Positions 123 through 25,947 are shown, numbered from the stretch's first letter. The stretch is DNA of 29,156 bases from an uncultured Planctomycetia bacterium (GCA_964596885.1 CAZQVU010000001.1:1-29156); one strand, 5' to 3'. A program made the numbers and translations. Notes: generated by a model not told the origin, from the sequence alone.

Positions 123-1514
123 ATGAACCAAAATAATAAAGATATACCCAAAGAAGTCCAGCAGTATGTTGATAAAGGCAAAGAAGCCTTAAAAAAACAC
201 AATTATGAGTATGCAGTTGAATTATTTAATCATGCTTTAACATTAAACCAAGAACTGCCTGAAATCCGTCACTACTTACATCTATCCCAGATAAAAAACT
301 TTCAGGAAAACCCTCCCTCAATATTTACAAAAGGAATAAATAAAGCCAGAGTTCAGAGTTTTATTTTCAATGCCAAAAAACTTGAATCTCAAGGCAGAAT
401 TAAAGAGGCAATTGAAGAATATGAAAAAGCCATATCGATTGACCCGCTAAACGCAAGTACCTTTAATAAACTCGCCTACTTATTTGTCAAAAATGGCCAG
501 GAGCAGATGGCTATAAATACATTTAATGAAACTTTAGTAATTAACCCGGAGAATCTGGAGGCTTTAAAACAATTAGGAAAGATATACCAGAAAAAAGAAG
601 AATACGAAAAAGCGCAAAATTTCTTCAATAAGGCAAAACAGATTAAACCTGATGATATTGATGTGCAAAAGGGCCTAAAAGATCTGGCTGCACTTCGGAC
701 TATTGATAAAGGCAAGTGGCAGGAGGAGTCCAGTTACAGGGAAAAGATTGAGGATAAAGAAGAGGCTGAAAGATTGGAAAAGGAAAGCAGGACTATAAAG
801 ACAAAGCAGGATATAGACTTTTTAATTAAAAACTTAGAGAAAGAAATAGAAAAAGAGCCTAAAAATGCATCACTTTTATATAAATTAGCAGACTATTATA
901 AACAAAAAGAAGACTATAACAAAACTCAGCAAATCTATAAAAGGATATTAGAATTAAAACCTGAAGATGATATAGCCCAAAAGAATATTGAAGAACTCGA
1001 ATCCAAAAAAATTGAAAAAGAAATCCTTTATCTCAAAGAAGAACTTAAAAAAGACCCTGAAAACAAAGAAATCCAAAATAGAATAAAAGAACTTGAGGAG
1101 AAAAAACAGAATTTGGACTTTGAAAGGATTAAAGATAGAGTTTCAAAATTTCCCAATGATGCCAGATTGCGATATCAATATGGAATTGCCCTTAAAGATA
1201 AAGGGAGGTATAAAGAAGCAATCAGCCAATTTCAGAAATCAGTAGAAGACCCTTCAAAGAGGCTTGATTCCTTAAATATGTTAGGACTCTGCTTTATGGA
1301 GAAAAAGATGTATGACTTGGCTGTTACACAGTTCAAAAAAGCCCTCACTTATGCTCCTCAAATTACCCCTAAAACAAAAGATATAATTTACAATTTAGGT
1401 ATCACCTATGAGAAGATGGGTAAAACTGAAGAGGCTATAAACGAATTTAAGAAGATATATGAAGTTGATATAAATTATAAAGACATTGCAGATAAAATAG
1501 AAAAAGCCTACTAA
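123..1514 (+). CDS. Tetratricopeptide repeat (TPR) protein, 463 aa
   Basis: About 8 TPR-like units (e.g. ASTFNKLAYLFVKNGQEQMAINTFNETLVINPEN; LEALKQLGKIYQKKEEYEKAQNFFNKAKQIKPDD; IIYNLGITYEKMGKTEEAINEFKKIYEVD) separated by E/K-rich coiled-coil segments; no signal peptide; has promoter and SD. Confidence 0.9.
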   Translation: MNQNNKDIPKEVQQYVDKGKEALKKHNYEYAVELFNHALTLNQELPEIRHYLHLSQIKNFQENPPSIFTKGINKARVQSFIFNAKKLESQGRIKEAIEEYEKAISIDPLNASTFNKLAYLFVKNGQEQMAINTFNETLVINPENLEALKQLGKIYQKKEEYEKAQNFFNKAKQIKPDDIDVQKGLKDLAALRTIDKGKWQEESSYREKIEDKEEAERLEKESRTIKTKQDIDFLIKNLEKEIEKEPKNASLLYKLADYYKQKEDYNKTQQIYKRILELKPEDDIAQKNIEELESKKIEKEILYLKEELKKDPENKEIQNRIKELEEKKQNLDFERIKDRVSKFPNDARLRYQYGIALKDKGRYKEAISQFQKSVEDPSKRLDSLNMLGLCFMEKKMYDLAVTQFKKALTYAPQITPKTKDIIYNLGITYEKMGKTEEAINEFKKIYEVDINYKDIADKIEKAY

Positions 1515-1517
1515 ATA

Positions 1518-3503
1518 CTAAAGTTCCTCTCTGGCGTCAATATCGACTGTTATAAGAAGCCCTGAGGGCCTCCTAAATCGCCTCAGGCTTTTATTTATAA
1601 TTTTTTTAAAAACAGTCAGGTCTTTACATCTTATTATTATATTCAGTCTATAGTTGCCTCTAATCTTGGATATAATTGAAGGTTGAGGTTGTATAATCTT
1701 TATCTCCTTATATCCTTTCTCATTCTTCTTGAGAATCTCAAAAAGTTCTCTTGCCTTTTCTATTATTTTTTTTCTCACCTTGCCTTTTAAGATAATGCAA
1801 TTAAAGTGATAATACGGCGGAAGATTTAATGCCTTTCTTTGTTTTAATTCATTTTTATAAAATTCTATATAATTTAATTCGCATGCCTGCTTAATGGCAA
1901 AATGTGATGGTAAAAAGGTTTGAATTATAACCTTTGTATCTTTATTTTCTTGCCTAACTTGATTTATTATATTATAGAGAGTTGCAAAGACCTTCTCCTG
2001 CATTCTAAAATCTGGAAGATGCATAGCGGTATCTGCATTAATTATACCTATTAAGCCTGTCTTTCTAAAACTAATTCCTTTAAATAAGATTTGAGTTCCA
2101 ATCAGGATATCTATCTTACCTTTATTAAAATCAGATAGAATCTTATAACGTTTGCCCTTCTGAGAGGCTACATCAGCATCTAATCTCTTTACTTTGCTTT
2201 GAGGATATCGGTGGCAGAGGATGCTTTCTAACTTCTCAGTGCCGAATCCAGAATAGTTTATATATGATTTCTTGCATTGGGGACAAATCTTAGGCGGTTT
2301 CTTGCGGTAATTGCAATAATGGCATATGAGTTCTTTTCTATCATAATGATAGATAAGATTCTTTTTACATCTGGGGCATTTAATAATATAGCCACATTCT
2401 CTGCATCTTATAAAAGTTGCAAATCCCCTTCTATTTAAAAAAAGAATAACATTCTTATCCTCCTTCAGTGAATTATCAATGGCATCTTTTAACCTATAGG
2501 ATAATAAACCTTTTCTTCCATAGATATCCTTCTCCTTTTTTAAATCAATAATCTCGACCTTCTCTAAACTATGCTTTTCTCCTCCTTTCTCTCGAATTAA
2601 GGAAAAGACTCTTCTTTTTGCCATATAATAAGACTCAATAGATGGTGTTATGCTGCTTAAAATCAAAGGGCACTTCAACATCTTGGCTCTTAACTCAGCC
2701 ACCTTCTTGGTATTGAATCTGGGTGCATCAGGTTTCTTATAAAGATCGGACTCCTCCTCATCTATAATTATTACCCCTATTTCAGCAAGAGGTGAAAAAA
2801 CAGCAGAACGGCTACCTATAACAATGCGGGCTTTTTTAGATATAATCTGAGCCAGATTATCCTTCTTCTGATTAGTTTTAAGTTGACTATGATATATGGC
2901 TATATCATCTGGATAAAATCTTTTTATTCTCGAGACTAAAATATCTACTGACAGAATCTCGGCAGCAAGCAGGAGAACGCTTTTTTTAATCCTGAATGCT
3001 TCTTTTATAAGTTTTAAATATAAGGCAATCTTATCCTCCTGGTTTCGTGCATGGTATAAATAGACTTTAAAAATCCTATCTGAAATAATCTTTCTTATCT
3101 TATTATATCCACTATTATCTAGTTTGCTATTTATTATCTCTTCTTTATCTATCTTCTTATCTATCCTTTTCCTTTCTATTTTAATCTTAGACTTCTTCAA
3201 GCCCAGGGGAAAGGCGGCATCTAAAACCTCACCCCAACTGGACAAATAATATTGAGACACCTTCTTAGTTAATCTTAACAGATGATTATCAAATATTGGT
3301 TCTTCATCTATGACATCCTGTATAGTTCTTAACTCTTTTATCCTGCTTTTTTTTGCAATGTCTACTACATAGCCTAATATTTCACTTCCCCTAAAATTAA
3401 CTCGCACTCGTTTACCTTTTTTTATCTTAGGAATAAACTTCTGGGGTATCCTATAATCAAAGGGGTCCTTTACCGGTCTTGGAATGGCTACTTTAGCTAT
3501 CAT
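1518..3503 (-). CDS. priA: Primosomal protein N' (PriA), 661 aa, with degenerate helicase motifs
   Basis: N-terminal 3'-DNA-binding domain (VAIPRPVKDPFDYRIP...GKRVRVNF...GYVV); GSRSAVFSP; LFLNRRGFA; 8-Cys Zn region CRECG..CPRC..CHYC..CPQC; GFGTEK; DILIGTQ; C-terminal LPPY and VDIDA. ATG overlaps the udg stop (ATGA). Confidence 0.93.
   Translation of the reverse strand: MIAKVAIPRPVKDPFDYRIPQKFIPKIKKGKRVRVNFRGSEILGYVVDIAKKSRIKELRTIQDVIDEEPIFDNHLLRLTKKVSQYYLSSWGEVLDAAFPLGLKKSKIKIERKRIDKKIDKEEIINSKLDNSGYNKIRKIISDRIFKVYLYHARNQEDKIALYLKLIKEAFRIKKSVLLLAAEILSVDILVSRIKRFYPDDIAIYHSQLKTNQKKDNLAQIISKKARIVIGSRSAVFSPLAEIGVIIIDEEESDLYKKPDAPRFNTKKVAELRAKMLKCPLILSSITPSIESYYMAKRRVFSLIREKGGEKHSLEKVEIIDLKKEKDIYGRKGLLSYRLKDAIDNSLKEDKNVILFLNRRGFATFIRCRECGYIIKCPRCKKNLIYHYDRKELICHYCNYRKKPPKICPQCKKSYINYSGFGTEKLESILCHRYPQSKVKRLDADVASQKGKRYKILSDFNKGKIDILIGTQILFKGISFRKTGLIGIINADTAMHLPDFRMQEKVFATLYNIINQVRQENKDTKVIIQTFLPSHFAIKQACELNYIEFYKNELKQRKALNLPPYYHFNCIILKGKVRKKIIEKARELFEILKKNEKGYKEIKIIQPQPSIISKIRGNYRLNIIIRCKDLTVFKKIINKSLRRFRRPSGLLITVDIDAREEL
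1555..1607 (+). terminator. Possible intrinsic terminator of the TPR gene, lying inside the priA 3' coding region
   Basis: CCTGAGG (1561-1567) pairs with CCTCAGG (1581-1587), extendable by AAG/CTT across a 1-nt bulge; 13-nt loop; followed by TTTTATTTATAATTTTTTT; about 40 nt after the TPR stop. Large loop lowers confidence. Confidence 0.35.
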
Positions 3504-4192
3504 CTCTTATTCTTAATACCTAATTCTCTCATAATCTTCTTCATATCCTCCCAGACTAACCTTTTATCCTGGGGATTCCTTAATAAATACGCTGGATGAT
3601 AGGTAGGCATTAATTTAATATCTTTAAAATTGTAAAACTTACCTCTAATCTGAGAGATTGACCTTTCTTCTTTCAATAACTCCTTGGCAGCAAACGAACC
3701 TAAAGCGCAAATAACTCTGGGTCTTATAATCTCAATCTGCTCTAAAAGATATCCTATGCAGGCCTTTATTTCATCCTCTTTAGGATTCCTATTGTTGGGT
3801 GGCCTATCCTTTAATATATTGGCTATGTAGACCTCTTCTCTTCTAAGACCCATAGCCTTTATTATACGACTAAGAAGCATTCCTGCTCTTCCAACAAAGG
3901 GTCTACCCTGTAAATCTTCTTCTTGGCCAGGCGCTTCTCCGATAAACATTAAATCGGCGTTGGGATCTCCTTCACCAAACACTAAGTTAGTTCTGCTTTT
4001 ATAGAGCGGGCATCTCTTACATTCAAGAACTCTTTTTCTTAATTCATTAAGCCTCGTTGCTTTTTGCATGCTTTTAGCATTATTATCTATAACATCTCCT
4101 TTTACCAAAAAATACTCACTAACACCTAAATTTCTATCAGTCTCAATCAATAATTTAATCTTTTTAATAACATTAGATAACTCTTCTTGCAA
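3500..4192 (-). CDS. udg: Uracil-DNA glycosylase family 4 (Fe-S type), about 230 aa
   Basis: CKRCPL, VFGEG, IGEAPG, PFVG, RPPNNR, TYHPAY motifs. Start placed at TTG 4192 because AGGAGG lies 9 nt upstream; the ORF-track TTG at 4201 directly abuts that SD. Confidence 0.92.
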   Translation of the reverse strand: MQEELSNVIKKIKLLIETDRNLGVSEYFLVKGDVIDNNAKSMQKATRLNELRKRVLECKRCPLYKSRTNLVFGEGDPNADLMFIGEAPGQEEDLQGRPFVGRAGMLLSRIIKAMGLRREEVYIANILKDRPPNNRNPKEDEIKACIGYLLEQIEIIRPRVICALGSFAAKELLKEERSISQIRGKFYNFKDIKLMPTYHPAYLLRNPQDKRLVWEDMKKIMRELGIKNKR

Positions 4193-5291
4193 AATCTGCA
4201 ACCTCCTTGACTGCTTCAGGTTTTACAATCTTAGAGATGTTATTCCTCATCCTTAGTAATATACCTGGATTATCAATTAAACCTTTTAGAAAATCATAAG
4301 CCTCTTTTTTATTATTCACCACTTTCATAACGCCCAATTCTTCCATAAGTTTTGAATTTAAACCCTCCTGGCCAGGTATGGGTGAGATAACTAGCATAGG
4401 TAATCTTTTTACTAAAGATTCGGTCAAAGTTATCCCTCCTGCCTTGGTAACAATTATATCGCTTATTTCCATCAATTCATCCACATTATTGACATATCCA
4501 TAAACCTTAAATGGCGCATCTATCTCTTTGCAAATAAATGTCAGGCGATTATATAACCTTCTATCATAACCACAAATAAATAACAGATTAACCATATCTT
4601 TATAAGGAAGAAATCTCCTCAATAGATATTCATAAGGTCCGATACCTGCTCCTCCTCCCATAATCATTATGGTAAGCTTTTTGGATTTAATACCTAATTT
4701 ATCCCTTATTAAATCCTTATCCTTGCAAGTAGAAAATTCCATCCCTACTGGTATGCCTAATATCTTTATCTTATCCTCATTGATATTACCTTTGATTAAA
4801 TCTATTTTGGTCCTATCGTCTGCAACAATAAAATAATCACTTTCTTTTACAAACCAGACTGAATGGGCTCTATAGTCAGTTACCACTGTCAATAACTTAG
4901 TCTTTATCCTCTTGGTCTTCTTTAAATAACTAACAATATAAGATGAGGAAAAATGGGTAGAGATAACAACATCAAATCCTTCTTTTATCAAAAGACATTG
5001 AAATCTTTTGGTATTAGATATCTCAGCCAGTGCTTTAAAAGATTCAAATATAGGAAGAAAAGTTCTACTATTCGACAGATAAAACAAGAAACCCCAAAGA
5101 TCTTTGAGGTATTTTATCAAAAAGATATAAACATCTGAATATAGAAATCTAAATAGACGATTAGTATAATTTAATATATCTTCTAAGTATATCTCATCAT
5201 CTTTGTTATTCTCTTTAAGAACTTCATATATGCTTTCAGCGGCCTTCTTATGACCAATCCCTACTGAGGCATAAACAATAAGTATTTTCAT
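4173..5291 (-). CDS. UgtP / MGDG-synthase-like diacylglycerol glycosyltransferase (GT28), 372 aa
   Basis: ILIVYASVGIGHKKAA, STHF, VVTDYRAHSVW, MGGGAG, DIIVTKAGGITLTE, PIPGQE motifs typical of the family; AAAGGA 8 nt before the ATG. Confidence 0.85.
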   Translation of the reverse strand: MKILIVYASVGIGHKKAAESIYEVLKENNKDDEIYLEDILNYTNRLFRFLYSDVYIFLIKYLKDLWGFLFYLSNSRTFLPIFESFKALAEISNTKRFQCLLIKEGFDVVISTHFSSSYIVSYLKKTKRIKTKLLTVVTDYRAHSVWFVKESDYFIVADDRTKIDLIKGNINEDKIKILGIPVGMEFSTCKDKDLIRDKLGIKSKKLTIMIMGGGAGIGPYEYLLRRFLPYKDMVNLLFICGYDRRLYNRLTFICKEIDAPFKVYGYVNNVDELMEISDIIVTKAGGITLTESLVKRLPMLVISPIPGQEGLNSKLMEELGVMKVVNNKKEAYDFLKGLIDNPGILLRMRNNISKIVKPEAVKEVADFARRVI

Positions 5292-5321
5292 CGTGGGCTT
5301 CCTTTAATTGGTTAAACGCTT

Positions 5322-5349
5322 AAGGTTCAAGGTTAAAGGTTCAAGGTTA
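5322..5349 (+). repeat. Heptamer tandem array (4 x 7 nt) downstream of the four-helix-bundle gene
   Basis: AAGGTTC AAGGTTA AAGGTTC AAGGTTA read directly (two perfect copies of a 14-mer), in the largest intergenic gap of the - strand run. Confidence 0.92.
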
Positions 5350-5357
5350 AAATATTT

Positions 5358-5741
5358 TTATAAATCTTTGCGATAATGAATTTTCTTTAAGATGCTTCCA
5401 AATATCTTTTTGAACTCGCTTGATTCTTGAATTAGGTGCTCTAATTTCTTACCTTTTGCTATATTAGTTGCCTTTACTATTCTTAACCAATAATTGCTTT
5501 CTTTTGCTTCGCGTAAACAAATAGATATCTTGTATTTGAAATCTTCCTTACTATAGGCACCCTGACTCTCTTCGTAATTAGCCCCTATTGAGGTTGCAGC
5601 TTTTGCTAATTGATACTTAACAACGTCATTGATCTTTGAATACTTAATTTCTTTTAAAAAATTTATTGCTTCTACTGAAAAATCAAACGTCCTTTTTTCT
5701 AAATCTCTTCTCTTTTTGAATTCATCCTCTTTATCTTTCAC
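5358..5741 (-). CDS. Four-helix-bundle protein (23S rRNA IVS protein / Avd-related family), 127 aa
   Basis: DLEKRTFDFS, QLAKAATSIGANYEESQ, SKEDFKYKISICLREAKESNYWL match the family pattern (QL.RA..SI.AN..E; F...L..A..E..E..YWL); GTG start with AAGGA 4 nt upstream. Confidence 0.88.
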   Translation of the reverse strand: MKDKEDEFKKRRDLEKRTFDFSVEAINFLKEIKYSKINDVVKYQLAKAATSIGANYEESQGAYSKEDFKYKISICLREAKESNYWLRIVKATNIAKGKKLEHLIQESSEFKKIFGSILKKIHYRKDL

Positions 5742-5743
5742 TT

Positions 5744-5771
5744 TATCCTTTAACCTTTATCCTTTATCCTC
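5744..5771 (-). repeat. Heptamer tandem array (4 x 7 nt) upstream of the four-helix-bundle gene, inverted relative to 5322-5349
   Basis: On the - strand GAGGATA AAGGATA AAGGTTA AAGGATA; 22/28 identical to the + strand array at 5322-5349; overlaps the last codons and stop of gmhB. Confidence 0.88.
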
Positions 5772-6308
5772 TACTATTATCCAATCAACTGCTTCCTTTA
5801 AATCTTTCTTTATATAATCTGGCTTTATCTGCCAAGAAAGCACATCATCTTTTTTGGTATTACCTGATAAAACTAGAATTGTTCTACAACCTATTCTCTT
5901 GCCTGCTTCAATATCTGTCCTTTTATCTCCAATAAAAAAGGTTTCTTTAAAATCGATACTCAATCCCTCTGTAGCCTGTCGAAAAAGCCCTACTTTGGGT
6001 TTGCGACAGAGACAGTTATCCTCATCCCTATGTATACAGTAATGAGTAGACCTTATCCTGCCTCCTGCCTTTTCTATCTCTGAAAGCATCTTAGCGTTAA
6101 CCTTTTTAAGGTCTTCCTTCGTATACAATCCCTTAGCAATCCCTGCCTGATTAGAAATAACTATGATATCATATCCGCGGGAATTTAATTTCTTTATAGC
6201 AGAGAGGGAACCGGGTAGAAATTCAAAATCCTCTGGACTCTTAACATAACCACCTTCGGGGTCTTTATTTATTACTCCATCTCTATCTAAAAATATTATC
6301 TTATTCAC
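5757..6308 (-). CDS. gmhB: D-glycero-D-manno-heptose 1,7-bisphosphate phosphatase-like HAD IIIA enzyme, 183 aa
   Basis: FLDRDGVIN, ISNQAGI, Zn motif CIH...CLCRKP, IGDKRTD; GTG start overlapping the upstream stop. GmhB versus histidinol-phosphatase-type substrate is inferred from glycan context. Confidence 0.85.
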   Translation of the reverse strand: MNKIIFLDRDGVINKDPEGGYVKSPEDFEFLPGSLSAIKKLNSRGYDIIVISNQAGIAKGLYTKEDLKKVNAKMLSEIEKAGGRIRSTHYCIHRDEDNCLCRKPKVGLFRQATEGLSIDFKETFFIGDKRTDIEAGKRIGCRTILVLSGNTKKDDVLSWQIKPDYIKKDLKEAVDWIIVEDKG

Positions 6309-7434
6309 GATACTTCTTTTTTATAAAACTTGCTATTTTATCAATAATCAGATTCTGTTTATTCTCTGTCAACTCAGGATATATGGGTAACGATAAAACC
6401 TCTTTCGAACACCTCTCAGATATTGGAAAATCTCCTCTAATATAGCCTAAATCTCTAAAGACTGGCTGGAGGTGTAGGGGTCTAGGATAATATATAGCAG
6501 CAGGTATACCTTCTTTCTTGAGGTAATCATAAAGAACACTTCTTAACTTTAGGCGGATAGTATAAACATTATATACATGTCTACAATTAGAATGCGTAAA
6601 TGGTATAGTTATTTCATTCTTTAAATCAAAAAATGACTTATTATAATACTCAGCAATTTTTCGCCTTGCATCTATCCATTTATTGACATATCTTAGTTTC
6701 CTTCTTAAAATAGCAGCCTGCAATTCATCAAGTCTACTGTTATACCCATATAATGTATGGTAATATCTCTTTGTTGCACCGTGCAGCCTGAGTTTCTTAG
6801 CCTTTTGGTATAACTTCTTATTGTTTGTAACAAGCATACCAGCATCTCCATAGGCAGCTAATATCTTGCTGGGAAAGAAACTAAATATAGCAGCAGAACC
6901 AAAAGAACCTACTTTTCTTCCGTTATATTCGGCGCCAAATGCCTGGGCTGCATCTTCAATAATATGCAATTTATACCTGTTGGCTATCTTAATAATAGCA
7001 TCCATTTTTGCTGGCTGACCATAAAGATGAACTGGCACTATCGCTTTCGTCCTGTTAGTAATCTTTTCTTCAATCTTGGCAGGGTCTATATTATATGTCT
7101 CTGGTTCAATATCAACGAATATAGGTTTAGCACCTACCTCTATTATAGCCTCAGCCGTGGCAATAAATGTAAAAGGTGTTGTAATAACCTCATCGCCCTT
7201 ACCGATATCTAATCCTCTTAGAGAGATCTTCAAGGCATCAGTTCCACAGGCAAGACCAACAGCATATTTTACTCCTAGATAATCAGCAACCTCCTCCTCA
7301 AATCTAAAGACTTCTTCTCCAAGAATAAACTTGCCTCTTTTAAGAACTCCCTCTATTGCCTTATTAATCTCTTTCTGGATGTTCTTATACTGTTCAGTTA
7401 AATCTAAAAATGAGAGTCTTTCTTCAGTTTTCAT
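6301..7434 (-). CDS. DegT/DnrJ/EryC1/StrS PLP-dependent sugar aminotransferase, 377 aa
   Basis: ACGTDAL, VHLYGQ, IEDAAQA, SFFPSK (PLP lysine), GYNSRLDELQAA, LSLPIYP. Confidence 0.93.
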   Translation of the reverse strand: MKTEERLSFLDLTEQYKNIQKEINKAIEGVLKRGKFILGEEVFRFEEEVADYLGVKYAVGLACGTDALKISLRGLDIGKGDEVITTPFTFIATAEAIIEVGAKPIFVDIEPETYNIDPAKIEEKITNRTKAIVPVHLYGQPAKMDAIIKIANRYKLHIIEDAAQAFGAEYNGRKVGSFGSAAIFSFFPSKILAAYGDAGMLVTNNKKLYQKAKKLRLHGATKRYYHTLYGYNSRLDELQAAILRRKLRYVNKWIDARRKIAEYYNKSFFDLKNEITIPFTHSNCRHVYNVYTIRLKLRSVLYDYLKKEGIPAAIYYPRPLHLQPVFRDLGYIRGDFPISERCSKEVLSLPIYPELTENKQNLIIDKIASFIKKKYRE

Positions 7435-8282
7435 CTTTTATAATATTCTGATTTCTTTCTAACTATAGCCCAGATATCTGGTCCCCAGAATCTTTTGCAT
7501 ATTATTGAAATGATGTTACTTGATCCATCCTCACACCAGATTTTAAAATCAAAATCAAATGACTTAAGAAGTCTTTTTAAGGAAGTTGGGGACTGTTCAT
7601 TTATGTGCATATGAGGACTATAGTTATAATAATCTCTCCTGTAATATAAATCAAGATAAGACAAGATTCTTTTCAAAAAACTCCCTCCCTCGGGTGGGCT
7701 ATAAGATTTCTTTTTCCTCAATCTTTTAATTATAGTAGCAGGAATAGTAAAGAAACGCTTCAGAGGATATTCAAAGCGGATCCAGTTAATATTAGGAGCG
7801 GTGTGGATAATTATTCTTCCTCTTTCAGAAAGATGCTCCTTCAATTCGGAAAACAAATATTCAAGCTGGCTCTGAGTTAAGTGTTCGACGACATCTGTTA
7901 AAAAACAGCAGTCATACTTATCTTCTAATTTAAGTAAAGATATATCTTGATGCAAGAGTCTTGCTTTATCTTGTAAATCTTTCGGTAAGGTCTTTATTGC
8001 CTTTTTTGCTATCGATAGGGCAGCCTCAGAGTAGTCAATGCCCACAACAGATGAGGCACCCTTTAATAAAGAAAAGTATAAAAGTTCACCCCTTCCACAA
8101 CCTATATCTAAAACCCTTTCTCCCTCTTTTAATCCTGCAAGCCTAAAGACCTCAGCAAATCTATTATCTAAATTGCCTGAGGTAAGACTCTTTAAATACT
8201 CATCAAGAGAATCTCCAAATGCTTTAAGATAATAATGCTTTTTATAGATATCTGATTTAACCGGTTTGCTGGTCTTGCTCAT
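7431..8282 (-). CDS. Class I SAM-dependent methyltransferase, about 283 aa
   Basis: VLDIGCGRGE, VGIDYS, DVVEHL, IIIHTAPN, HINE. Start taken at ATG 8282 (MSKT) to minimise overlap; 8312 is the alternative. Confidence 0.85.
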   Translation of the reverse strand: MSKTSKPVKSDIYKKHYYLKAFGDSLDEYLKSLTSGNLDNRFAEVFRLAGLKEGERVLDIGCGRGELLYFSLLKGASSVVGIDYSEAALSIAKKAIKTLPKDLQDKARLLHQDISLLKLEDKYDCCFLTDVVEHLTQSQLEYLFSELKEHLSERGRIIIHTAPNINWIRFEYPLKRFFTIPATIIKRLRKKKSYSPPEGGSFLKRILSYLDLYYRRDYYNYSPHMHINEQSPTSLKRLLKSFDFDFKIWCEDGSSNIISIICKRFWGPDIWAIVRKKSEYYKR

Positions 8283-9042
8283 TTTGTTTTTTAAGTTGTC
8301 TATATTTAGCATAACTTAGAAATTGATAAAGTCCAGAGAAGACTGCTACTATTAAACCAATAAATCCATCTCTGAAGCCTTGTTTTATTATATAGGCTCT
8401 AAAAAACCTATCTACGGTTTTTCTCATTGCTCGCAGAAAACTCATCCTTCTTTTGTCGTTATACCATTTCTCTGCCTCTTTTGTCGTCTGATAATTAAGA
8501 CTGTTTAAAAAATGGGTTATATCAGGATATCCTCTATGTATTATATCGCCTCTTAGATGACCGCACTCACCTTCTAAAAATATCCTGGGATGAACTCCTA
8601 CCTCCTCATATCTAAACTTGTCCTTCCTGAATAATCTCACTTTAGCGGCTGGATACCAACCACCAAACCTGACCCAATAATCACCAATATAATTCTTAAG
8701 CGGAATAGAGAAGGCATTATATTTAGTATTAACAGATAAGGTTCTATCAATCTCGCTCTTTAACTCATCTGTTACAATCTCATCTGCATCTAAACTCAAA
8801 ACCCAATCGTTTTTACTTAAAGAATAGGCATAGTTTCTGTAACGGCCTTCAATATCCATCTTTTTAGTGTAAACCTTATCAGTATATCTTGTGGCGATTT
8901 CAACCGTTTTGTCTGTGCTCTCATCATCCAAGACTATTATTTCATCAGCCCAACCAGAGACTGATTTAAGACATTTATCTATGTTCTCCTCTTCATTTTT
9001 TGTGATAATGACAACTGACAATGGAATTTTTTTGCTTTCCAT
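8257..9042 (-). CDS. GT2 glycosyltransferase, WaaE/KdtX-like beta-glucosyltransferase subfamily, 261 aa
   Basis: LSVVIITKNEEENI, WADEIIVLDDESTDKT, WVLSLDADE, RLFRK, VH, DGFIGLIVA. Confidence 0.88.
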   Translation of the reverse strand: MESKKIPLSVVIITKNEEENIDKCLKSVSGWADEIIVLDDESTDKTVEIATRYTDKVYTKKMDIEGRYRNYAYSLSKNDWVLSLDADEIVTDELKSEIDRTLSVNTKYNAFSIPLKNYIGDYWVRFGGWYPAAKVRLFRKDKFRYEEVGVHPRIFLEGECGHLRGDIIHRGYPDITHFLNSLNYQTTKEAEKWYNDKRRMSFLRAMRKTVDRFFRAYIIKQGFRDGFIGLIVAVFSGLYQFLSYAKYRQLKKQNEQDQQTG

Positions 9043-9046
9043 TAGT

Positions 9047-10075
9047 CTATAACCCTCTAATATCTTTAAAGGAAGTTACCCTGGCTTTATGAAATACCCT
9101 CATAATTTTTAAAATCCTTCTTAATCTATCAGACTGTATTAATAATATATCGTATCTTTTCTTAATCCTCCTTATAATCCTGAAAAGACATTTTAATATA
9201 AACAATCTCCTATTATATAAAAGAGATTTGATATTTGAGTGATTTATATTCTTAATCTTAGCATTTTTCTCCTCTGCAATTATAATCCAGTTGCCTTTTC
9301 TTGCCAATCTTAAACACTCTTCTTTATCTCCATTACCTAAACCATCTCTTGCTTCTATAAAAATCCTCTTAGGCTTTCCCCATCTGCTATAAAAAATCTT
9401 CTGGTTCTCTTTAAACATTTTATTATGGTCTTTAAACTTAAGAAAGGAAGTACCTTCATAATGATAAACATAACTTGCTTTGCATCTGGCAATAGTAAAA
9501 CCTGCCTGGCTTGCCCTTCTCGAATAGTCGGTATCTTCAAAATAACCCCTTCCATATATCTCATCAAATACACCAATTTTATCAATAACCTCCCGCCTGA
9601 TGAACATACAGAAACCACTTGCCTGCGCCATCTCCTCAAACTGACCATGATATCTCTTTAATGACTGAGCATAATTGTCAATATCCTTTATATTTGTCTT
9701 TTGTCCCAAAGTATTGCTTGAAGGATTAAGAAGGCCTAAACCTGGATTCTCCAAAGCAAGATAGACAAGCTCATTGAGCCAGTCTTCTGTAACTAGTGTA
9801 TCATTATTTAAAAGACAGACAAAATCTGCCTTTGAATGTCTTAATCCTTGATTTGCCGCCTTTAGATAACCTAAGTTTTCTTCATTTCTGATGAGATTAA
9901 CTCTATCATTATATAAAGAGGTAAAATCCTTCAAGTATTGGGAGGTTTCAACATCGCTTCCATTATCAATTATAAGAAGTTCATAAGGGGCTTTTGTCTT
10001 TAAAATGATACTTTTCAGGCAGTCTTTTGTTCTTTTTAATTCATTCCAGACAATTACTACAATCTCAGACTTCAT
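9047..10075 (-). CDS. GT2 glycosyltransferase (WbbL/GT2-like) with C-terminal extension, 342 aa
   Basis: IIDNGS, NLGYLKAANQG, LLNNDT, GFCMFIRREVIDKIGVFDE, YFEDTDYSRR, VYHYEG; about 110 extra residues after RWGKP. Confidence 0.88.
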   Translation of the reverse strand: MKSEIVVIVWNELKRTKDCLKSIILKTKAPYELLIIDNGSDVETSQYLKDFTSLYNDRVNLIRNEENLGYLKAANQGLRHSKADFVCLLNNDTLVTEDWLNELVYLALENPGLGLLNPSSNTLGQKTNIKDIDNYAQSLKRYHGQFEEMAQASGFCMFIRREVIDKIGVFDEIYGRGYFEDTDYSRRASQAGFTIARCKASYVYHYEGTSFLKFKDHNKMFKENQKIFYSRWGKPKRIFIEARDGLGNGDKEECLRLARKGNWIIIAEEKNAKIKNINHSNIKSLLYNRRLFILKCLFRIIRRIKKRYDILLIQSDRLRRILKIMRVFHKARVTSFKDIRGL

Positions 10076-10941
10076 AGTTTTAAATCTCTAAACCTATCCT
10101 CATCCCATTGTCTAATTATAGCAAACATCTTGGACAGTCTATCTTTATAGGTATGATAATTGATTGCTAAATCATAGCCAGATCTGGCTATAGTCTCCCT
10201 TTCTCTATCGTTTTCTAGATAATATCGTATTAATCCAATCAACTCTTCTTTTGAGTTATAAACTATCAAGTGACGATTTTCAACAAATAACTCGCCAAAA
10301 CCATTATCCTTTATCCTATTTGTAAGAAGCATAGTGCCACAACTTAAAATCTCAAACATACGCATATTAATATCGTTATTCAGGGAGCAATTTAAACCTA
10401 TCTTTGAACTACTATAAATTTTACTCATCTCAGTATAATGAGCCTTGCCAATAAATGAATTAGGAAATTCTCTTTTAACAGTCAGGAGAATATCTTCCCT
10501 TAAACTCCCTTTACCACCAAATGAACCCACAAAACCCACATCATATCTCTTTTCAATGTTCTCTCTTTTGTGAATTTCGGGCTCACAGGCAAGAGGCAAC
10601 CAGAAAACCTTTCTCTTTAAATCCTGACTGAGTTTTTCAGCCCCTTCTTTCTGGCTTGCAAATACAAAATCATAATGTTTTGCTTGATGCAATATCTTCT
10701 TGTAAGGTTTTTTAAGATGGGTATCTATAGCCAAAAAGACGGCTGGATGTAGTCTCTTTGAAATATCAAATTTATAATCGCCGTGGTCTATCCTGAGATA
10801 TAAATCAAATCTCTCCCTTACCTTTTTAAAACCTTCAACCGGAAAGTGCTTAAACTCTAAATTGCTTTTTTTAAGCACTCTTTCAAAATAACATCCAGTA
10901 GTATCATCTCTATCCTTATTAAAAAGCAGGGCTATTCTCAT
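10072..10941 (-). CDS. CgeB-like GT-B glycosyltransferase (Glyco_trans_1_2 type), 289 aa
   Basis: WLPLACEP, YDVGFVGS, YSSSKIGLN, NMRMFEILSCG..LLT, ERETIARSG, HTYKDR. Confidence 0.82.
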   Translation of the reverse strand: MRIALLFNKDRDDTTGCYFERVLKKSNLEFKHFPVEGFKKVRERFDLYLRIDHGDYKFDISKRLHPAVFLAIDTHLKKPYKKILHQAKHYDFVFASQKEGAEKLSQDLKRKVFWLPLACEPEIHKRENIEKRYDVGFVGSFGGKGSLREDILLTVKREFPNSFIGKAHYTEMSKIYSSSKIGLNCSLNNDINMRMFEILSCGTMLLTNRIKDNGFGELFVENRHLIVYNSKEELIGLIRYYLENDRERETIARSGYDLAINYHTYKDRLSKMFAIIRQWDEDRFRDLKL

Positions 10942-10949
10942 AGCAGATA

Positions 10950-11756
10950 TTATAATTGTATATCGTATAATAATATACTAGCCGGACCAGCCTTAGTGTC
11001 TGCCTTGACCAAGATTGGTATTCTCTTTTTATTATCTGTAAACCAGATAGTTCCGCTTACCTCATGTCGGGTGGTGGCCTTAACCGGCCTTAAATGAAAA
11101 TATAATTTAATTGTTTTAATCCTGCCAAAAGGTGTTTTGAGTTCTTCCCTATCCTTTAACTGGACATAAAGAAATCTATCCCTTTTTCTGCTTTTTATAT
11201 TGATTTCATATCCCTCTTTCAACTTATCTATATCTAATAATCGTATAAGATACAAAGCACTAAGGGGATCCTGGGTATCAGGTAAGATTCTTATCTTCTC
11301 TCCCTCTATTGTAAGATAGAGGTCTTTTTGATTATAGAATACTTCTTTTTTATTTTTTCTATGTCCTCTTGCCTGAGACTCCTCTTTAAAATATAGTGAA
11401 TGCAGTCTATCTACATCCATATAAGAATGGAGGCTACCTTCTATCTCAAAAAATAATGAGACGAAGTCTGATGTCCTACCCCAGGCTAACAGATGATAGA
11501 CAAAACGATCTTTGTATCTTTTTATCTCCTCAACTCGAATAACTACCTTACCTGCAGGAAGACCTAAGTATCTAAGCGTATAAGCTATCTTCTCACCGGC
11601 TTTAAATGGTTCATCTAGTGACGAATGTAAGGTTGATTCAATTTGAGACTTATATTTTTTTGTGGCTAAATCCCAACCAAATAGTTGATAGAATATATAT
11701 AGACAGATAAAACCAATAATAAAAAATATAAAAAATTTAGTAATCTTATTTCTCAT
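10950..11756 (-). CDS. DUF3108-like exported protein with N-terminal membrane anchor, 268 aa
   Basis: N-terminal hydrophobic stretch; GEKIAYTLRYLGLPAG, TQDPLSALY, IWFTDNKKRIPILV resemble the DUF3108 pattern as recalled. Confidence 0.7.
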   Translation of the reverse strand: MRNKITKFFIFFIIGFICLYIFYQLFGWDLATKKYKSQIESTLHSSLDEPFKAGEKIAYTLRYLGLPAGKVVIRVEEIKRYKDRFVYHLLAWGRTSDFVSLFFEIEGSLHSYMDVDRLHSLYFKEESQARGHRKNKKEVFYNQKDLYLTIEGEKIRILPDTQDPLSALYLIRLLDIDKLKEGYEINIKSRKRDRFLYVQLKDREELKTPFGRIKTIKLYFHLRPVKATTRHEVSGTIWFTDNKKRIPILVKADTKAGPASILLYDIQL

Positions 11757-13525
11757 TTCGAATCCTCCAATTTAAACACCTTAATGTCTCCAAAGTCTTT
11801 AATTAGTATCAAATCAAGTTTTTTATCAAATTTATCAAGTTGCTTCTCAATTGCCAAACGGTAACTTTTTTCATATCTATCTAGATGCAGAATAACATAT
11901 CTAACTCCTAAACTCTTTAAGATTTCTGTTGCTTCAGGCTTAAGTATATCTCTAACCTTCTCGCTTATTGAATAAGCCTCAGTATCTGGCTGTGCTCCAT
12001 TTAATAACCTTTTTTTATGAACCCTTTGATAGAATAAATATTCAACATCATTACCTATAGGATACTCGGCTACGATCATATCATTATTCTGCTGCTTTAA
12101 CCATTTATAAACTTGAGGAATTCTACTCATATCTACTGTCTTAAAGGGTGGGAAGTTTATAAATTCAAAAATAAGAAAAATTATTAAACAGAAACTAACT
12201 ATCATTTTTTTCCAATTATTAGATAAGCACTCAATCAAAAATTTAAAACCGAAACCAGCCATAGCGCATAAAGCAAGCATAACTACTATTCCAAAACGTG
12301 CCCCATTACGAAAAAAAGGTGCAATCTTATAGACCCAATATGAAGGCAGATAGATGTTAGTATTCAAGATAATAAACTTAGGTGGAAGGGAAAACAAAAA
12401 AGCGACTATAGCTAAAGACACAAAGAATCCTAAGGTAAAATCATCCTTTTCTTTCTTTATTGCTTCTTTAATTATAGGCTTTTTTTGATTGTTCCAATAG
12501 CGGTATCCAAAAATTGAAAATAAAATAATACTAATCCCCAGATATAGACTATGCTCCTGCAGATTCTCTCCATAAAAGATTGAGCCTACAAGCCTCTGTG
12601 CAAAAGAACCAAAAAATGGATGATTGGCAGCAGGTAAAATATAATTAAATACTCTGGCAGCATAAATGTGGAGTTGACTTATTGGTCGCTCAGCCATTTG
12701 TCTCTGTAGCCAGGGCGTCAGCTGGCCTTCAAAAAAATATGACTTAAATATGGGGTAGATATATGGAAGGCACACTAAAACAGCAACCAGAATGCAAACA
12801 GATAGAAGAAGTATATTTTTTAATATTCCCACATTAGGTGTAAATATTGTCTCTCTTTTAATAAATAATTTCCTAAAAAATTTAAAAGCAAGAAATGTTA
12901 AGGCTGCAATCAGCATAAAATAGCCATAATATGTATCAGATAAAAGAGATAGAGCAAAAAATAATCCACATAATCCTGCACTGCTAAATGTCCTTTCATT
13001 ATGAAATTTAAACATAAAAAGAATAAAAAGCGGCATCCACTGAATATTAGCCAGGGTTATATGACAAGCATGAGCAAAGTGATATGGACAAAAAGAGAAT
13101 GCAAAACCAACTAAAAAAGAAGCCCATTTATTCTTGGTTAAATAATAGGATAGAAAATACATAGCTATGCCAGCTAATGGAAAGGTAAGAAATATTATAA
13201 AGTTATAAGCAAATATTTCATCTACTAAAACAGTTAAAATTAGAAGTGGGTAATTGGCAAAAGAAAGATTTATGTTTTTTGTTATATCCTTAGATAGATC
13301 TACGCCAAAAGGACTGGCTATAATAGGCACAAATTGCGGTGATAAATCATGCTGCCAGGCATATTTTACCCACCAGGCATACCATAAAGCCTCAAGTAGA
13401 TCCCCTTTATAATCATATATCTGAGATCGCATATTAATTATAAGGGGCCAGGTAAACAAAGCAGCCAATAATATAAATAATATAAAGATTATAATCTCGA
13501 ATTTAAACCTTCTTAAAAGACTCAT
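11753..13525 (-). CDS. Polytopic YfhO-like membrane protein, putative GT-C glycosyltransferase, 590 aa
   Basis: About 11-13 hydrophobic segments; acidic GD after TM1 then W..WW; FAFSFCPYHFAH, QWMPLF, FRNGARF; C-terminal soluble domain IPQVYKWL...EYP...LGVRYVILH. Confidence 0.7.
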   Translation of the reverse strand: MSLLRRFKFEIIIFILFILLAALFTWPLIINMRSQIYDYKGDLLEALWYAWWVKYAWQHDLSPQFVPIIASPFGVDLSKDITKNINLSFANYPLLILTVLVDEIFAYNFIIFLTFPLAGIAMYFLSYYLTKNKWASFLVGFAFSFCPYHFAHACHITLANIQWMPLFILFMFKFHNERTFSSAGLCGLFFALSLLSDTYYGYFMLIAALTFLAFKFFRKLFIKRETIFTPNVGILKNILLLSVCILVAVLVCLPYIYPIFKSYFFEGQLTPWLQRQMAERPISQLHIYAARVFNYILPAANHPFFGSFAQRLVGSIFYGENLQEHSLYLGISIILFSIFGYRYWNNQKKPIIKEAIKKEKDDFTLGFFVSLAIVAFLFSLPPKFIILNTNIYLPSYWVYKIAPFFRNGARFGIVVMLALCAMAGFGFKFLIECLSNNWKKMIVSFCLIIFLIFEFINFPPFKTVDMSRIPQVYKWLKQQNNDMIVAEYPIGNDVEYLFYQRVHKKRLLNGAQPDTEAYSISEKVRDILKPEATEILKSLGVRYVILHLDRYEKSYRLAIEKQLDKFDKKLDLILIKDFGDIKVFKLEDSK

Positions 13526-14703
13526 TTCATTTTCTTCTTCTGCATCAATAACATAACAATACCTAAAGCAAATATTGTCACCACTACCACAAAGATAATT
13601 TTCGGTATATTGCTATACGAAATCTTTTCGGTGGAATTGATTGATTGATTCTCTTTCTCTTCTTTTTCTTCTGATTCTTCTTCTAAAAAAGCAATATTCT
13701 TTCTTAACAAGGCTTCTTCCCATACGGGCTTAAAGCCTACACCTTCAAACTCTAACTTAACGAAATCATGCGTAATATCAATATTGCTAATCCAATTTAT
13801 ATTTTCTTTAGTAAAGGAACGACCAATAACCTCTGCAAAAAAATAGGCATCATCCTCTATGCTGGTAATATCAGCAGTAGACTTTGGAATAAATATAATC
13901 TTGCCACTTACCGCATCATTAGTCTCCAAATCAAAAGAAAGTCCTGCTGAATTAATTGACTCAGATGATAAAAGCAACCGCATACCTTCCTTTTCCTCCC
14001 ACCTGCGTAGGTTATCAGAAAACATCTTATCTTTGTTATTGGCAAAGATAAAAGCATCTCCTTTATTTAATATGCCCTCGAGTTTAACAAATTCCTCATT
14101 CTTAGAGACAGAATCAACCTCACCTCTGTATGTATCTATAGCCAGTCTAAGTTCCTTAGGGCTGGTAGCAATCAGGAAAAAGTCATCTATCTGGGTGTAG
14201 GCAGCCAAATCCTTTTGTCCATGAAAAGGTTCAAGTTTCTTATCCCGGTAGGTTATCCTATAACCCTCATAATTGACTTCTTTTAAGGGCTTTCTTTTCT
14301 TTATCAAAATATTTAGAGCCTCTCTGAAGATATCATCTTCGCCAGTTATCTTAATAATAACAATAAACTTAGAATAGATTGGTTCACCCTCTTCATTATA
14401 AGGTTTATCAGGTAAAAAAATGGCTCCGGCAATTGTCTTAAGAGGAAGTTCTGCATAAAGCTCTTTTATAGCCGTGTATTTCTCAGGATATTCTCTTATT
14501 TCAAAACGCTCTCTCCAGAGATTCATTACAAAAGAAAGGCCAGGATCATCAGGATTATTCTTAATCAAGATTATACCGTCTGACTCTGCAGGGAGAAACT
14601 TTAACTCTTCAATCTCAGAATAGACTACCTCAGTTAAACTTAAAACAATTAAAATGCAAACTCCTGTAATAATACAAAGTAACTTGCTATGACCCTTAAT
14701 CAT
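13522..14703 (-). CDS. Exported protein with N-terminal signal and C-terminal TM anchor, DUF3352-like, about 393 aa
   Basis: Signal-like MIKGHSKLLCIITGVCILIVLSL; EVNYEGYRI and YTQIDDFFLIATSPKELRLAID resemble DUF3352; acidic linker, TM, then QKKKMK. Start at ATG 14703 (GAGGAG upstream, overlaps the upstream stop). Confidence 0.65.
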   Translation of the reverse strand: MIKGHSKLLCIITGVCILIVLSLTEVVYSEIEELKFLPAESDGIILIKNNPDDPGLSFVMNLWRERFEIREYPEKYTAIKELYAELPLKTIAGAIFLPDKPYNEEGEPIYSKFIVIIKITGEDDIFREALNILIKKRKPLKEVNYEGYRITYRDKKLEPFHGQKDLAAYTQIDDFFLIATSPKELRLAIDTYRGEVDSVSKNEEFVKLEGILNKGDAFIFANNKDKMFSDNLRRWEEKEGMRLLLSSESINSAGLSFDLETNDAVSGKIIFIPKSTADITSIEDDAYFFAEVIGRSFTKENINWISNIDITHDFVKLEFEGVGFKPVWEEALLRKNIAFLEEESEEKEEKENQSINSTEKISYSNIPKIIFVVVVTIFALGIVMLLMQKKKMK

Positions 14704-15661
14704 CTTTTTCTCTCCTCTTTTTTGCCAATTCAAAATTCAAAACAATGTGACTATCTGACATTTTAACATTATAGTTAAATTGATAAAAATTTGCTTCAAA
14801 TACCCTCTTTAATATCTGAGAAACAAACCAGATATCTTTTCTGGCGTCTTTGAAATCAGTCTCTGGCTTGAAGATAAAATTGACCTCTCCTTTATTTATT
14901 CTATTTTTATAATCATTGGACAAGTAGATATAAACCTCATCTAAATTATCTATAGTCAGAAAAAAATTATAAGAGGTTTTCTCTAAAACTTTAGTCAGGT
15001 AATAATCTATTATACCAGTTTTATTGTCTATGTATATAAATAATGGTTTGCGATAGCGCTCATTTAAAAAATTCTTCAACCGATTCTCCTTTCGCTTGGT
15101 TATGTTAAAGCAATCAATTAGGCTGTGTAATCTTTCTTTAGACGTAGATAAGAAATATGTATCTTTATATTGGGCAAATGACTTAAAATCCTTCCCTTTA
15201 TCTAATTCAGTTCTATCCCAAATTAAAAACCCCTGTCTTTTAGTTAACTTATAATCTTTACTTATGCCCGGTCTATTTAAATATAAAAAGAGTGGAATCT
15301 CTGCAAAGCGAGTAAGTTTCTTTGATTTAATTAATAAGGTGTAGTCAAATTCCTCCTTTTGAGATTCATCAACCAGCACAATAAAAGAAAGTGGTGAAAA
15401 AAAATATCCTGCTACCTTAAGAACACATCTTGAAAGGCGTCCAATTAAAAACTTTTTTCCAAATCTAAAATTGATAATTTCATCAAATAGAGGGAAGCTC
15501 TCTTTGTCTAAATTAAATCTTAAGGCTACAAAATGTCCCTCAACAGAAATCTTGCCTAGATTCGCTTCTTCTTGCGGCAAAAAGCTCCAGATAAATATAA
15601 TGAATACAAAAACAATAATGATAAAGAAAACCAGACCAAAGATTCTCTTAATTAAACTCAT
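14696..15661 (-). CDS. Membrane-anchored exported protein, paralog of 13522-14703, 321 aa
   Basis: N-terminal TM; FAQYKDTYFLSTSKERLHSLID aligns with the neighbour's YTQIDDFFLIATSPKELRLAID; C-terminal halves also align by eye. Confidence 0.65.
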   Translation of the reverse strand: MSLIKRIFGLVFFIIIVFVFIIFIWSFLPQEEANLGKISVEGHFVALRFNLDKESFPLFDEIINFRFGKKFLIGRLSRCVLKVAGYFFSPLSFIVLVDESQKEEFDYTLLIKSKKLTRFAEIPLFLYLNRPGISKDYKLTKRQGFLIWDRTELDKGKDFKSFAQYKDTYFLSTSKERLHSLIDCFNITKRKENRLKNFLNERYRKPLFIYIDNKTGIIDYYLTKVLEKTSYNFFLTIDNLDEVYIYLSNDYKNRINKGEVNFIFKPETDFKDARKDIWFVSQILKRVFEANFYQFNYNVKMSDSHIVLNFELAKKRREKDD

Positions 15662-16764
15662 TCTTCTTTAAGGTATTCTTTCTCTTTAAAGAACTTTATT
15701 AATTTTAGAATTAGCCCGATTACTACAAAAAGAAAAGCCCAGTTTGCCAGTTGTTCTGAAATAATCTTCATATCGAGAATCAATAAAATAGCGCATACAA
15801 GAAGCAGAATAGCAAAAGTGCCAATAAAGATATCGGCATATAGATTATATCTGCCGAGGGTATTATCTCTTAACTGCCTCATCCTTAACTTAAATTTATC
15901 CTTCCTACCGTATTTAACCACCTGATAGATCTTACCTATAGAAATCGAGCTAATTAAAATTAGCCAGAAATCTAATTCATACCAAAAAAAAGTATAAGTT
16001 GATATGATTTTACTTATAAGATATAGGATGGAAAAAATTGAAATTGCTGGAAGATATGTCCAAAAATCAGATTTTATTATTGCAACTAACCTCTTATCAG
16101 TGATAGAGAAGAAGGCGATAGAGTATAAAAGCCATAGGCTTAAAAAACCAATTCCACCCCACAAACACAATTCCCAGTTAACTGGCTTGTTGCCGCGCTT
16201 AGCAAACCAACGAGTCGTTTCCCAGATTGTATATGCCCTCATAAAGACCAAATTTCTATTCTTATAGTTTTTTACCGTTAGTTTCTTAAAATCAGGTTTA
16301 GAATTAATCCTTTTTTTAATAAATACTAATTTATTCAACCCTTCTTTAGTTAATTCAACTGGTAAGATGAGACTTTTCTTAAGCCACACTCCAGTCTTTT
16401 CAGCCTTCAGATTGCCCAAATGATGCTCTCTACAATATACCTCAATAACTTGATCTGGGTTATGAAAACGAAGGATAAAATTGAGAACCAAACCATCTTT
16501 CTGGGGTGTATAAAAAATAAGGGTTGCTCTTTTTTCTTCCATTGAAACATAGAAGTCTTTATCTCTTCTGTTGCCCCAGCCAGTTAATAAATAAAACCTA
16601 TCAGTCTTTTCAGTTGGATAGAAATTATATGTCGCCTCAAATTTTATAAAATTGGATTCTACCATAGTTTGATAAAAAAAGATTAGCAAGAAACCAAATA
16701 TTACCGCTCCGATAATATAGAAAAGGAGGCTCTTATCTTCTATGAATTTCGCGAATATAGACAT
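15658..16764 (-). CDS. Membrane protein with an extracytoplasmic beta-rich domain and about 5 C-terminal TMs, 368 aa
   Basis: N-terminal TM; soluble domain LTGWG...KEGLNKLVF; multiple TMs ending ISEQLANWAFLF; ATG with AGGAG. Confidence 0.7.
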   Translation of the reverse strand: MSIFAKFIEDKSLLFYIIGAVIFGFLLIFFYQTMVESNFIKFEATYNFYPTEKTDRFYLLTGWGNRRDKDFYVSMEEKRATLIFYTPQKDGLVLNFILRFHNPDQVIEVYCREHHLGNLKAEKTGVWLKKSLILPVELTKEGLNKLVFIKKRINSKPDFKKLTVKNYKNRNLVFMRAYTIWETTRWFAKRGNKPVNWELCLWGGIGFLSLWLLYSIAFFSITDKRLVAIIKSDFWTYLPAISIFSILYLISKIISTYTFFWYELDFWLILISSISIGKIYQVVKYGRKDKFKLRMRQLRDNTLGRYNLYADIFIGTFAILLLVCAILLILDMKIISEQLANWAFLFVVIGLILKLIKFFKEKEYLKEE

Positions 16765-16769
16765 CTCTC

Positions 16770-19913: not shown

Positions 19914-19958
19914 TTAGATAAAAACTAATTGTAAAAAAAATTTAGGCAAAGTTTTAGT

Positions 19959-24040: not shown

Positions 24041-24059
24041 CACAGCAGATTTGAAATTA

Positions 24060-25945: not shown

Positions 25946-25947
25946 CT

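Follow-up and report, generated by a model that had tools for sequence, protein, structure and literature searches.

The priA gene and its product

The stretch of DNA analysed here, a window of 29,156 nucleotides (nt) (GCA_964596885.1 CAZQVU010000001.1:1-29156), comes from an uncultured bacterium recorded as a member of the Planctomycetia, and the source names of its nearest homologues put the lineage in Candidatus Omnitrophota. The window carries a gene for the replication restart protein PriA in which the ATPase and helicase motifs are degenerate and the DNA-binding and zinc-binding parts are retained. The features of this locus are collected in Table 1, where nt coordinates refer to the whole window and amino acid (aa) numbers to the 661-aa product, P0001, encoded by a minus-strand open reading frame (ORF) spanning exactly 1518..3503.

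Table 1 Features of the priA locus, with their positions in the window and the evidence for each.
Feature	Residues (aa)	Coordinates (nt)	Strand	Canonical form	Evidence or remark
priA gene	661 in all	1518..3503	-		TIGR00595, 466 bits; single PriA of the genome
3'-DNA-binding domain, intact	4-99	3207..3494	-		PF17764, 92.6 bits
Linker, in place of the E. coli winged-helix domain	100-144	3072..3206	-		alignment and AlphaFold2 model
Former motif I (Walker A), LYHARNQEDKIALY	149-162	3018..3059	-	LLHGxTxSGKTEVY	alignment
Former motif Ia, AAEILSV	180-186	2946..2966	-	VPEISLT	alignment
Former motif II, DEEES	248-252	2748..2762	-	DEEH	alignment; His replaced by Glu
Former motif III, SSITPS	283-288	2640..2657	-	GSATPS	alignment
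Cys-rich zinc region	367-410	2274..2405	-		all 8 Cys present
Former motif VI, NIINQVRQ	511-518	1950..1973	-	QVAGRAGR	alignment
PriA C-terminal domain, retained	563-656	1536..1817	-		PF18074, 54.5 bits
Family-4 uracil-DNA glycosylase		3500..4201	-		PF03167, aa 75-220
Small '23S rRNA-intervening sequence protein' ORF, within the glycan cluster		5358..5741	-		Pfam PF05635

P0001 was identified as PriA by a whole-protein match to the NCBIfam equivalog model TIGR00595 (466.5 bits, with a cut-off of 230.35). It also matched the short-PriA model NF004072 end to end and had E. coli PriA (PDB 6dcr) as its best PDB sequence match over the full length. Its Pfam domains follow one another in the order PF17764, PF18319 (Zn_ribbon_PriA, aa 376-402), PF00271 (Helicase_C, aa 423-491) and PF18074, corresponding to the 3'-DNA-binding domain (3'BD), the RecA-like lobes with the Cys-rich region (CRR) as a zinc insert in lobe 2, and the C-terminal domain (CTD). 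The FDY pocket motif (F15, D16, Y17) is present in the 3'BD, and the CRR cysteines (C367, C370, C376, C379, C394, C397, C407 and C410) are invariant among relatives. No DEAD or ResIII match was obtained for P0001 in the Pfam scan, though both are present in canonical relatives.

The helicase motifs were called by aligning P0001, residue by residue, with E. coli PriA (PDB 6dcr and 8fak) and with 19 canonical PriAs from its class. The Walker A core GxTxSGKTE has become ARNQEDKIA, with all the P-loop glycines and the Mg-binding Thr lost; the Walker Lys, K158, persists in every member of the clade. Over its extended length motif Ia reads AAEILSVDI instead of VPEISLTPQ, the TPQ having disappeared. 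In the former motif II, E250, E251 and S252 are clade-invariant, and a partly kept aromatic-rich loop, YKKPDAPRF, comes after it. Both arginine fingers of motif VI are gone. A regular-expression scan of the whole protein found no GK[ST], DExH or GRxxR anywhere, nor any alternative P-loop.

These results agree closely with a first-pass annotation of the window, which had identified the protein as PriA and listed the 3'BD, the eight zinc Cys and the CTD as remaining: the TIGR00595 score, the Pfam matches and the alignment bear this out. Its readings of motifs I, Ia, II and VI were exact in their residues, and that of motif II in its position too; it had placed Walker A at ~3025-3060 and motif VI at ~1955-1985, so that its coordinates were off by at most about a dozen bases. 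The intact P-loop or motif VI elsewhere in the protein that it named as counter-evidence was not found in the scan of P0001.

The substitutions are not spread evenly along the protein. We scored 141 positions that are invariant in at least 18 of the 19 canonical PriAs of the class and read them in the window's clade. None was lost from the 3'BD (8 kept, 3 partly kept) or from the CRR (11 kept, 1 partly kept). Helicase lobe 1 lost 23 (15 kept, 12 partly kept) and the part of lobe 2 that follows the CRR lost 19 (16 kept, 7 partly kept), which together make up 42 of the 51 lost positions. The losses are thus concentrated in the nucleotide-binding and translocation motifs. The kept positions include NRRG(F) at 357-361, GT at 469-470, DFR at 498-500 and Q528.

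The PriA fold is preserved in an AlphaFold2 model built from a 56-sequence alignment, with a mean predicted local distance difference test (pLDDT) score of 90.1 and a predicted template modelling (TM) score of 0.90. The best PDB matches of the model are E. coli and Klebsiella PriA (8fak_H, TM 0.84; 6dcr_A, second best, 0.75; 4nl4, 0.75). The helix after strand beta-1 starts at Q155, three residues ahead of K158, from which we draw no conclusion about a P-loop. Between the 3'BD and the core the model contains no winged-helix fold: residues 101-129 form a low-confidence coil (pLDDT ~50) and 130-142 a single helix, in a linker of ~30-45 aa. The first-pass annotation had likewise described a linker of ~35 aa without a winged helix, with which the alignment and the model concur. 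We considered whether the loss of this domain was coupled to that of the motor, and rejected the idea, as the canonical Omnitrophota PriAs are equally short (~660-700 aa) and also devoid of it. Because they have the same length and P0001 matches NF004072 end to end, the absence of the winged helix is a lineage trait independent of motor loss. The winged helix does not define PriA as a family, since neither the canonical proteins of the class nor the curated short-PriA models include it.

Copy number, selection and spread of degenerate PriAs

The genome of this organism (1.10 Mb, 161 contigs, 88.8% complete) holds one PriA. Searching it with TIGR00595 returned priA with 467 bits, the weaker matches being RecG, Mfd and UvrB, and a P0001 search of 40 relatives found one PriA apiece in six members of the same order. 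On the strength of both searches, in which the cross-matches were only RecG, Mfd and UvrB, we rejected the existence of a second canonical priA. The 'divergent second copy' that the first-pass annotation had offered as an alternative falls as well, the genome itself and each same-order relative carrying one PriA-like gene. RecG, Mfd and UvrB provide an internal control: in all three proteins of this genome Walker A, DExx and motif VI are canonical, which argues against a general decay of motifs through AT-rich drift.

The same degenerate state occurs in seven genomes, the window's own and the six others of the order with PriA, from four genera and two families. The motif substitutions are not due to chance, because they recur in all six of those other genomes. 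Pairwise ratios of nonsynonymous to synonymous substitution rates (dN/dS) for priA were 0.19 (L007/L009), 0.115 (L021/L024) and 0.11 (L021/L026), with synonymous divergence (dS) of up to ~2. All the domains are constrained: dN/dS was 0.05-0.23 in the two helicase lobes, lobe 1 (0.13-0.22) being no more relaxed than the other domains, and the linker was the least constrained part (0.28-0.55). Overall, values of 0.11-0.19 correspond to purifying selection. The pseudohelicase of the first-pass annotation, with its ATPase motifs lost under such selection, therefore fits the sequence, conservation and selection data.

The genomes of the order are small (0.9-1.5 Mb), but a link between motor loss and genome reduction was unsupported: outside the order, genomes with a motor-dead PriA measure ~1.3-2.4 Mb versus 1.2-2.7 Mb for those with a canonical one. 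In the closest relative, G001, a member of the same family, priA is broken within the linker, leaving a 3'BD ORF of 121 aa (L008, 1149..1514) and a core ORF of 535 aa (1504..3111). The two halves are in different frames with an 11-nt overlap, and they keep the gene order of the window, uracil-DNA glycosylase (UDG)-priA-TPR. Either the PriA of G001 is genuinely made as two pieces, or an A-rich stretch contains a frameshift error; a PriA interrupted within the winged helix is tolerated by E. coli (PMC5778457).

Degenerate PriAs are widespread in the class. In 38 genomes of the class, representing 33 of the 35 sampled families, the sequences read divided equally between canonical (19/38) and degenerate (19/38) proteins. 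A TIGR00595 scan of 301 class genomes gave a match in 278, with bimodal scores: 173 lay at E <= 1e-170, including all 19 verified canonical PriAs, and 103 (~37%) at E > 1e-150, including all 19 verified degenerate ones and also some fragments, with two genomes in between. A profile search of 5.8 billion proteins yielded only P0002-P0004 as further members of the window's clade, the sequences of genera g3 and g4 lying outside that database.

A tree of RpoB from 40 genomes grouped the window's order with G013 (support 100/99) and, separately, eight families with degenerate PriA (100/100). Among the other dead PriAs, that of G027 is nested among the canonical G034 and G029 (99/97), and those of G031, G021 and G018 sit elsewhere. 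The tree demands a minimum of five state changes. A single clade of all the genomes with dead PriA was rejected by the approximately unbiased (AU) test (p = 0.0038). More than one loss of the PriA motor in the class is thus well supported. Neither the exact number of losses nor the independence of the window's clade from the largest dead clade is established: a tree uniting the window's clade and the eight-family clade was not rejected (AU p = 0.58), though the RpoB trees place them apart. The two differ in what replaced the former GKT, which is [D/E]-K-[I/M] in the window's clade and R-W (G-x-R-W) in the eight-family clade.

An RpoB deletion of ~75 residues (TIGR02013 positions ~220-296) is common to G009, G011, G012, G014, G023, G025, G033 and G036 (L093-L100); it coincides with the degenerate PriA and marks the eight families as one clade. 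G011, which falls inside that clade, gave no match to P0001 at E <= 1e-20. It belongs to family f6, where none of five genomes (G011, G050, G081, G109 and G133; 90-96% complete) had a TIGR00595 match at E <= 1e-30; PriA may have been entirely lost in this family or have diverged beyond recognition. Several of the top-matching homologues of P0001 (P0080, P0104/P0073, P0077 and P0039) also lack some or all of the ATPase motifs. They are labelled only 'bacterium' or 'subsurface metagenome', and two of them have a length of 816 aa; PriAs with a degenerate motor may thus extend beyond this Omnitrophota class.

PriA as a putative ATP-independent scaffold

A PriA without a motor has been described in D. 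radiodurans. The protein has degenerate motifs I and II and no measurable ATPase or unwinding activity, but binds single-stranded DNA and forks normally and interacts with DnaB (PMC4504706, Lopper et al. 2015), and a review of 2017 considered the helicase activity of PriA conserved 'except in Deinococcus' (PMC5778457). The first-pass annotation had invoked both Deinococcus and Actinobacteria as precedents; the former is documented (PMC4504706), and we found no publication supporting a helicase-dead PriA in the latter. We also found no literature pairing PriA helicase with Omnitrophota, and a 2026 paper on PriA domain dynamics (PMC13594977) has nothing on pseudohelicases. A motor loss independent of that in Deinococcus, also put forward in the first-pass annotation, is upheld: the two lineages belong to different phyla, and a fully canonical PriA is kept by about half of the families sampled in the class, sister families of the window's among them. 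In the best-supported reading, P0001 is an unpublished counterpart of the Deinococcus pseudohelicase, with a separate evolutionary origin.

The replication partners encoded in the genome are those of a DciA-type system. DnaB (597 bits, at C5:12459-13754) and DciA (at C10:3420-3725) are present, the latter in the gene order dnaA-dnaN-dciA-gyrB, and among the same-order relatives DnaB occurs in 7/7 and DciA in 6/7. A candidate DnaC/DnaI was rejected, as the best match to PF01695 (IstB/DnaC-type) was DnaA itself, a cross-match. PriC was not found in the genome, in keeping with E. coli genetics: there, the PriA motor is needed for restart through the PriA-PriC pathway (PMC5778457, where helicase activity is described as necessary for this route only). 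The genome also encodes one UvrD/PcrA-type helicase. To our knowledge, DciA-using bacteria have no PriB, DnaT or DnaD adaptor.

From these observations, we consider it quite probable that the only PriA of this organism is a pseudohelicase that serves as an ATP-independent scaffold for recognising forks and recruiting DnaB. By analogy with D. radiodurans PriA and with the E. coli priA300 allele (K230R), in which the ATPase, helicase and translocase activities are abolished and cells are nonetheless near wild type (PMC5778457), the following mechanism can be proposed. The two RecA-like lobes would persist as a rigid, selected structural platform unable to bind or hydrolyse ATP and hence to translocate or unwind. 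Abandoned forks would be recognised through the intact 3'BD, the CTD and the zinc-binding CRR, and PriA would then act as an assembly scaffold, independent of ATP, returning DnaB and its DciA partner to the lagging-strand template. Clearing of the duplex at the fork would be left to other helicases of the genome with intact motifs (RecG and the UvrD/PcrA-type protein).

P0001 shares with D. radiodurans PriA the degenerate Walker A and B motifs, the retained DNA-binding architecture, a genome with DnaB and DciA rather than DnaC or PriB/DnaT (D. radiodurans was DciA-positive in our control panel) and the same proposed role. It differs in its separate origin, in a wider erosion that has removed motifs Ia, III and VI and every P-loop glycine, in keeping the Walker Lys (an Arg in Deinococcus), and in being a protein of ~660 aa without a winged helix. 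The E. coli alleles K230R, K230A and K230D likewise separate the motor from restart, as dead alleles assemble primosomes and allow near-wild-type growth (PMC5778457), but they are single engineered changes in a PriB/DnaT/DnaC/PriC system, whereas P0001 represents a natural loss of several motifs in a DciA system without PriC. The winged-helix deletion of E. coli PriA (6DCR) and the natural short PriAs (NF004072, NF004069) also join the 3'BD to the core by a short linker, and in contrast keep an active motor. Other dead PriAs of the class ('clade A', e.g. L031 and L056-L058) resemble P0001 in length, domain set and the loss of motif I, the motif II His and motif VI; they differ by an Arg-Trp at the former Lys-Thr, by a motif VI deletion and by their separate, strongly supported RpoB clade, the one with the ~75-aa RpoB deletion. 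The AU test permits but does not demonstrate a common origin of 'clade A' and the window's clade (p = 0.58).

Several points weigh against the scaffold interpretation. The loss of ATPase activity in P0001 is a prediction from sequence. With the genome 88.8% complete and in 161 contigs, the absence of a second copy and of adaptors leans partly on the relatives. The clade-invariant K158, E250 and E251 could indicate that the old site retains a residual ligand-binding or switch role and is not purely structural, and the loss of TPQ, which contacts single-stranded DNA in motif Ia, may mean that lobe 1 binds DNA differently from canonical PriA. In addition, fork binding and DnaB recruitment by P0001 would follow by analogy, the evidence for direct PriA-DnaB contact coming from one in-vitro study in a different phylum.

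The invariant residues lead to an alternative in which the old nucleotide site has been remodelled, either as a non-hydrolysing switch responding to a nucleotide or other ligand or as a lock in which a salt bridge between K158 and E250/E251 fixes the lobes in one conformation. In fact, L149, Y150, K158, Y162, E250, E251, S252 and K256 are invariant among the same-order PriAs at only 36-58% overall identity, lobe 1 is no less constrained than the other domains, and the regular Arg-Trp replacement in the other large dead clade suggests that the pocket was filled in an orderly way and not by drift. However, nothing is left of the P-loop glycines or the Mg-binding Thr, the acidic E156 and D157 just before K158 would repel phosphate, and both arginine fingers are lost, which makes a remodelled site unlikely. 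It is even less likely that P0001 retains a weak or unconventional ATPase or helicase activity. A second, weaker nucleotide site of unknown location has been reported in E. coli PriA (PMC5778457) and might serve for this, and the Walker Lys and two Walker B acids persist; but K230R alone kills all three activities in E. coli (PMC5778457) and five motifs are altered in P0001, which has no P-loop-like sequence elsewhere, and the D. radiodurans protein shows no measurable ATPase after milder changes (PMC4504706). Finally, that priA is a decaying relic without cellular role, or an artefact of metagenome assembly or binning, is hardly credible: some class genomes lack any PriA match (family f6 despite its completeness), the gene is split in G001 and the genomes of the order are small, but six of seven genomes of the order have an uninterrupted, full-length frame, dN/dS is low with dS reaching ~2, no canonical-invariant residue is lost in the 3'BD or CRR, independent assemblies from many samples show this sequence state, and G001 shares the UDG-priA-TPR gene order.

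Beyond the scaffold proposed for P0001, we envisage, as a tentative and rather doubtful scenario, that the PriA motor was repeatedly discarded in the class (in about one third of the species, by at least two and probably ~5 losses), that one family became PriA-less, and that in the window's clade the dead site was fixed anew, with an invariant K158 beside E250, E251 and S252, as an internal salt-bridge lock that holds the lobes in one conformation competent for fork binding. If this were true, then in bacteria with a DciA-type system and no PriC the ancestral role of PriA that cannot be dispensed with would be to recognise forks and recruit the helicase, and its own helicase activity would be an accessory.

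The interest of P0001 lies mainly in the recurrence and wide spread of motor loss within one phylum. A class with canonical, several motor-dead and possibly PriA-less lineages offers a comparative system for the minimal role of PriA, a natural series that can reveal which surfaces (3'BD, CRR or CTD) are indispensable, and is relevant to DnaB reloading in the majority of bacteria, which use DciA. The label 'replication restart helicase' that such genes currently receive overstates the sequence evidence.

Genes around priA

The start codon of priA and the stop codon of the UDG gene upstream of it share bases (ATGA), which suggests that this repair gene may be translationally coupled to priA. The UDG has an N-terminal extension of ~70 aa without a Pfam match, and the overlapping arrangement of the two genes is also found in G001. 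The minus strand carries all 22 consecutive ORFs of at least 120 aa (window 1518..28949). A glycolipid/glycan cluster upstream of priA and the UDG gene encodes a GT28 glycosyltransferase of the monogalactosyldiacylglycerol (MGDG)-synthase type, a HAD phosphatase, a DegT aminotransferase, a methyltransferase and several GT2/GT1 glycosyltransferases, with the small PF05635 ORF of Table 1 among them.

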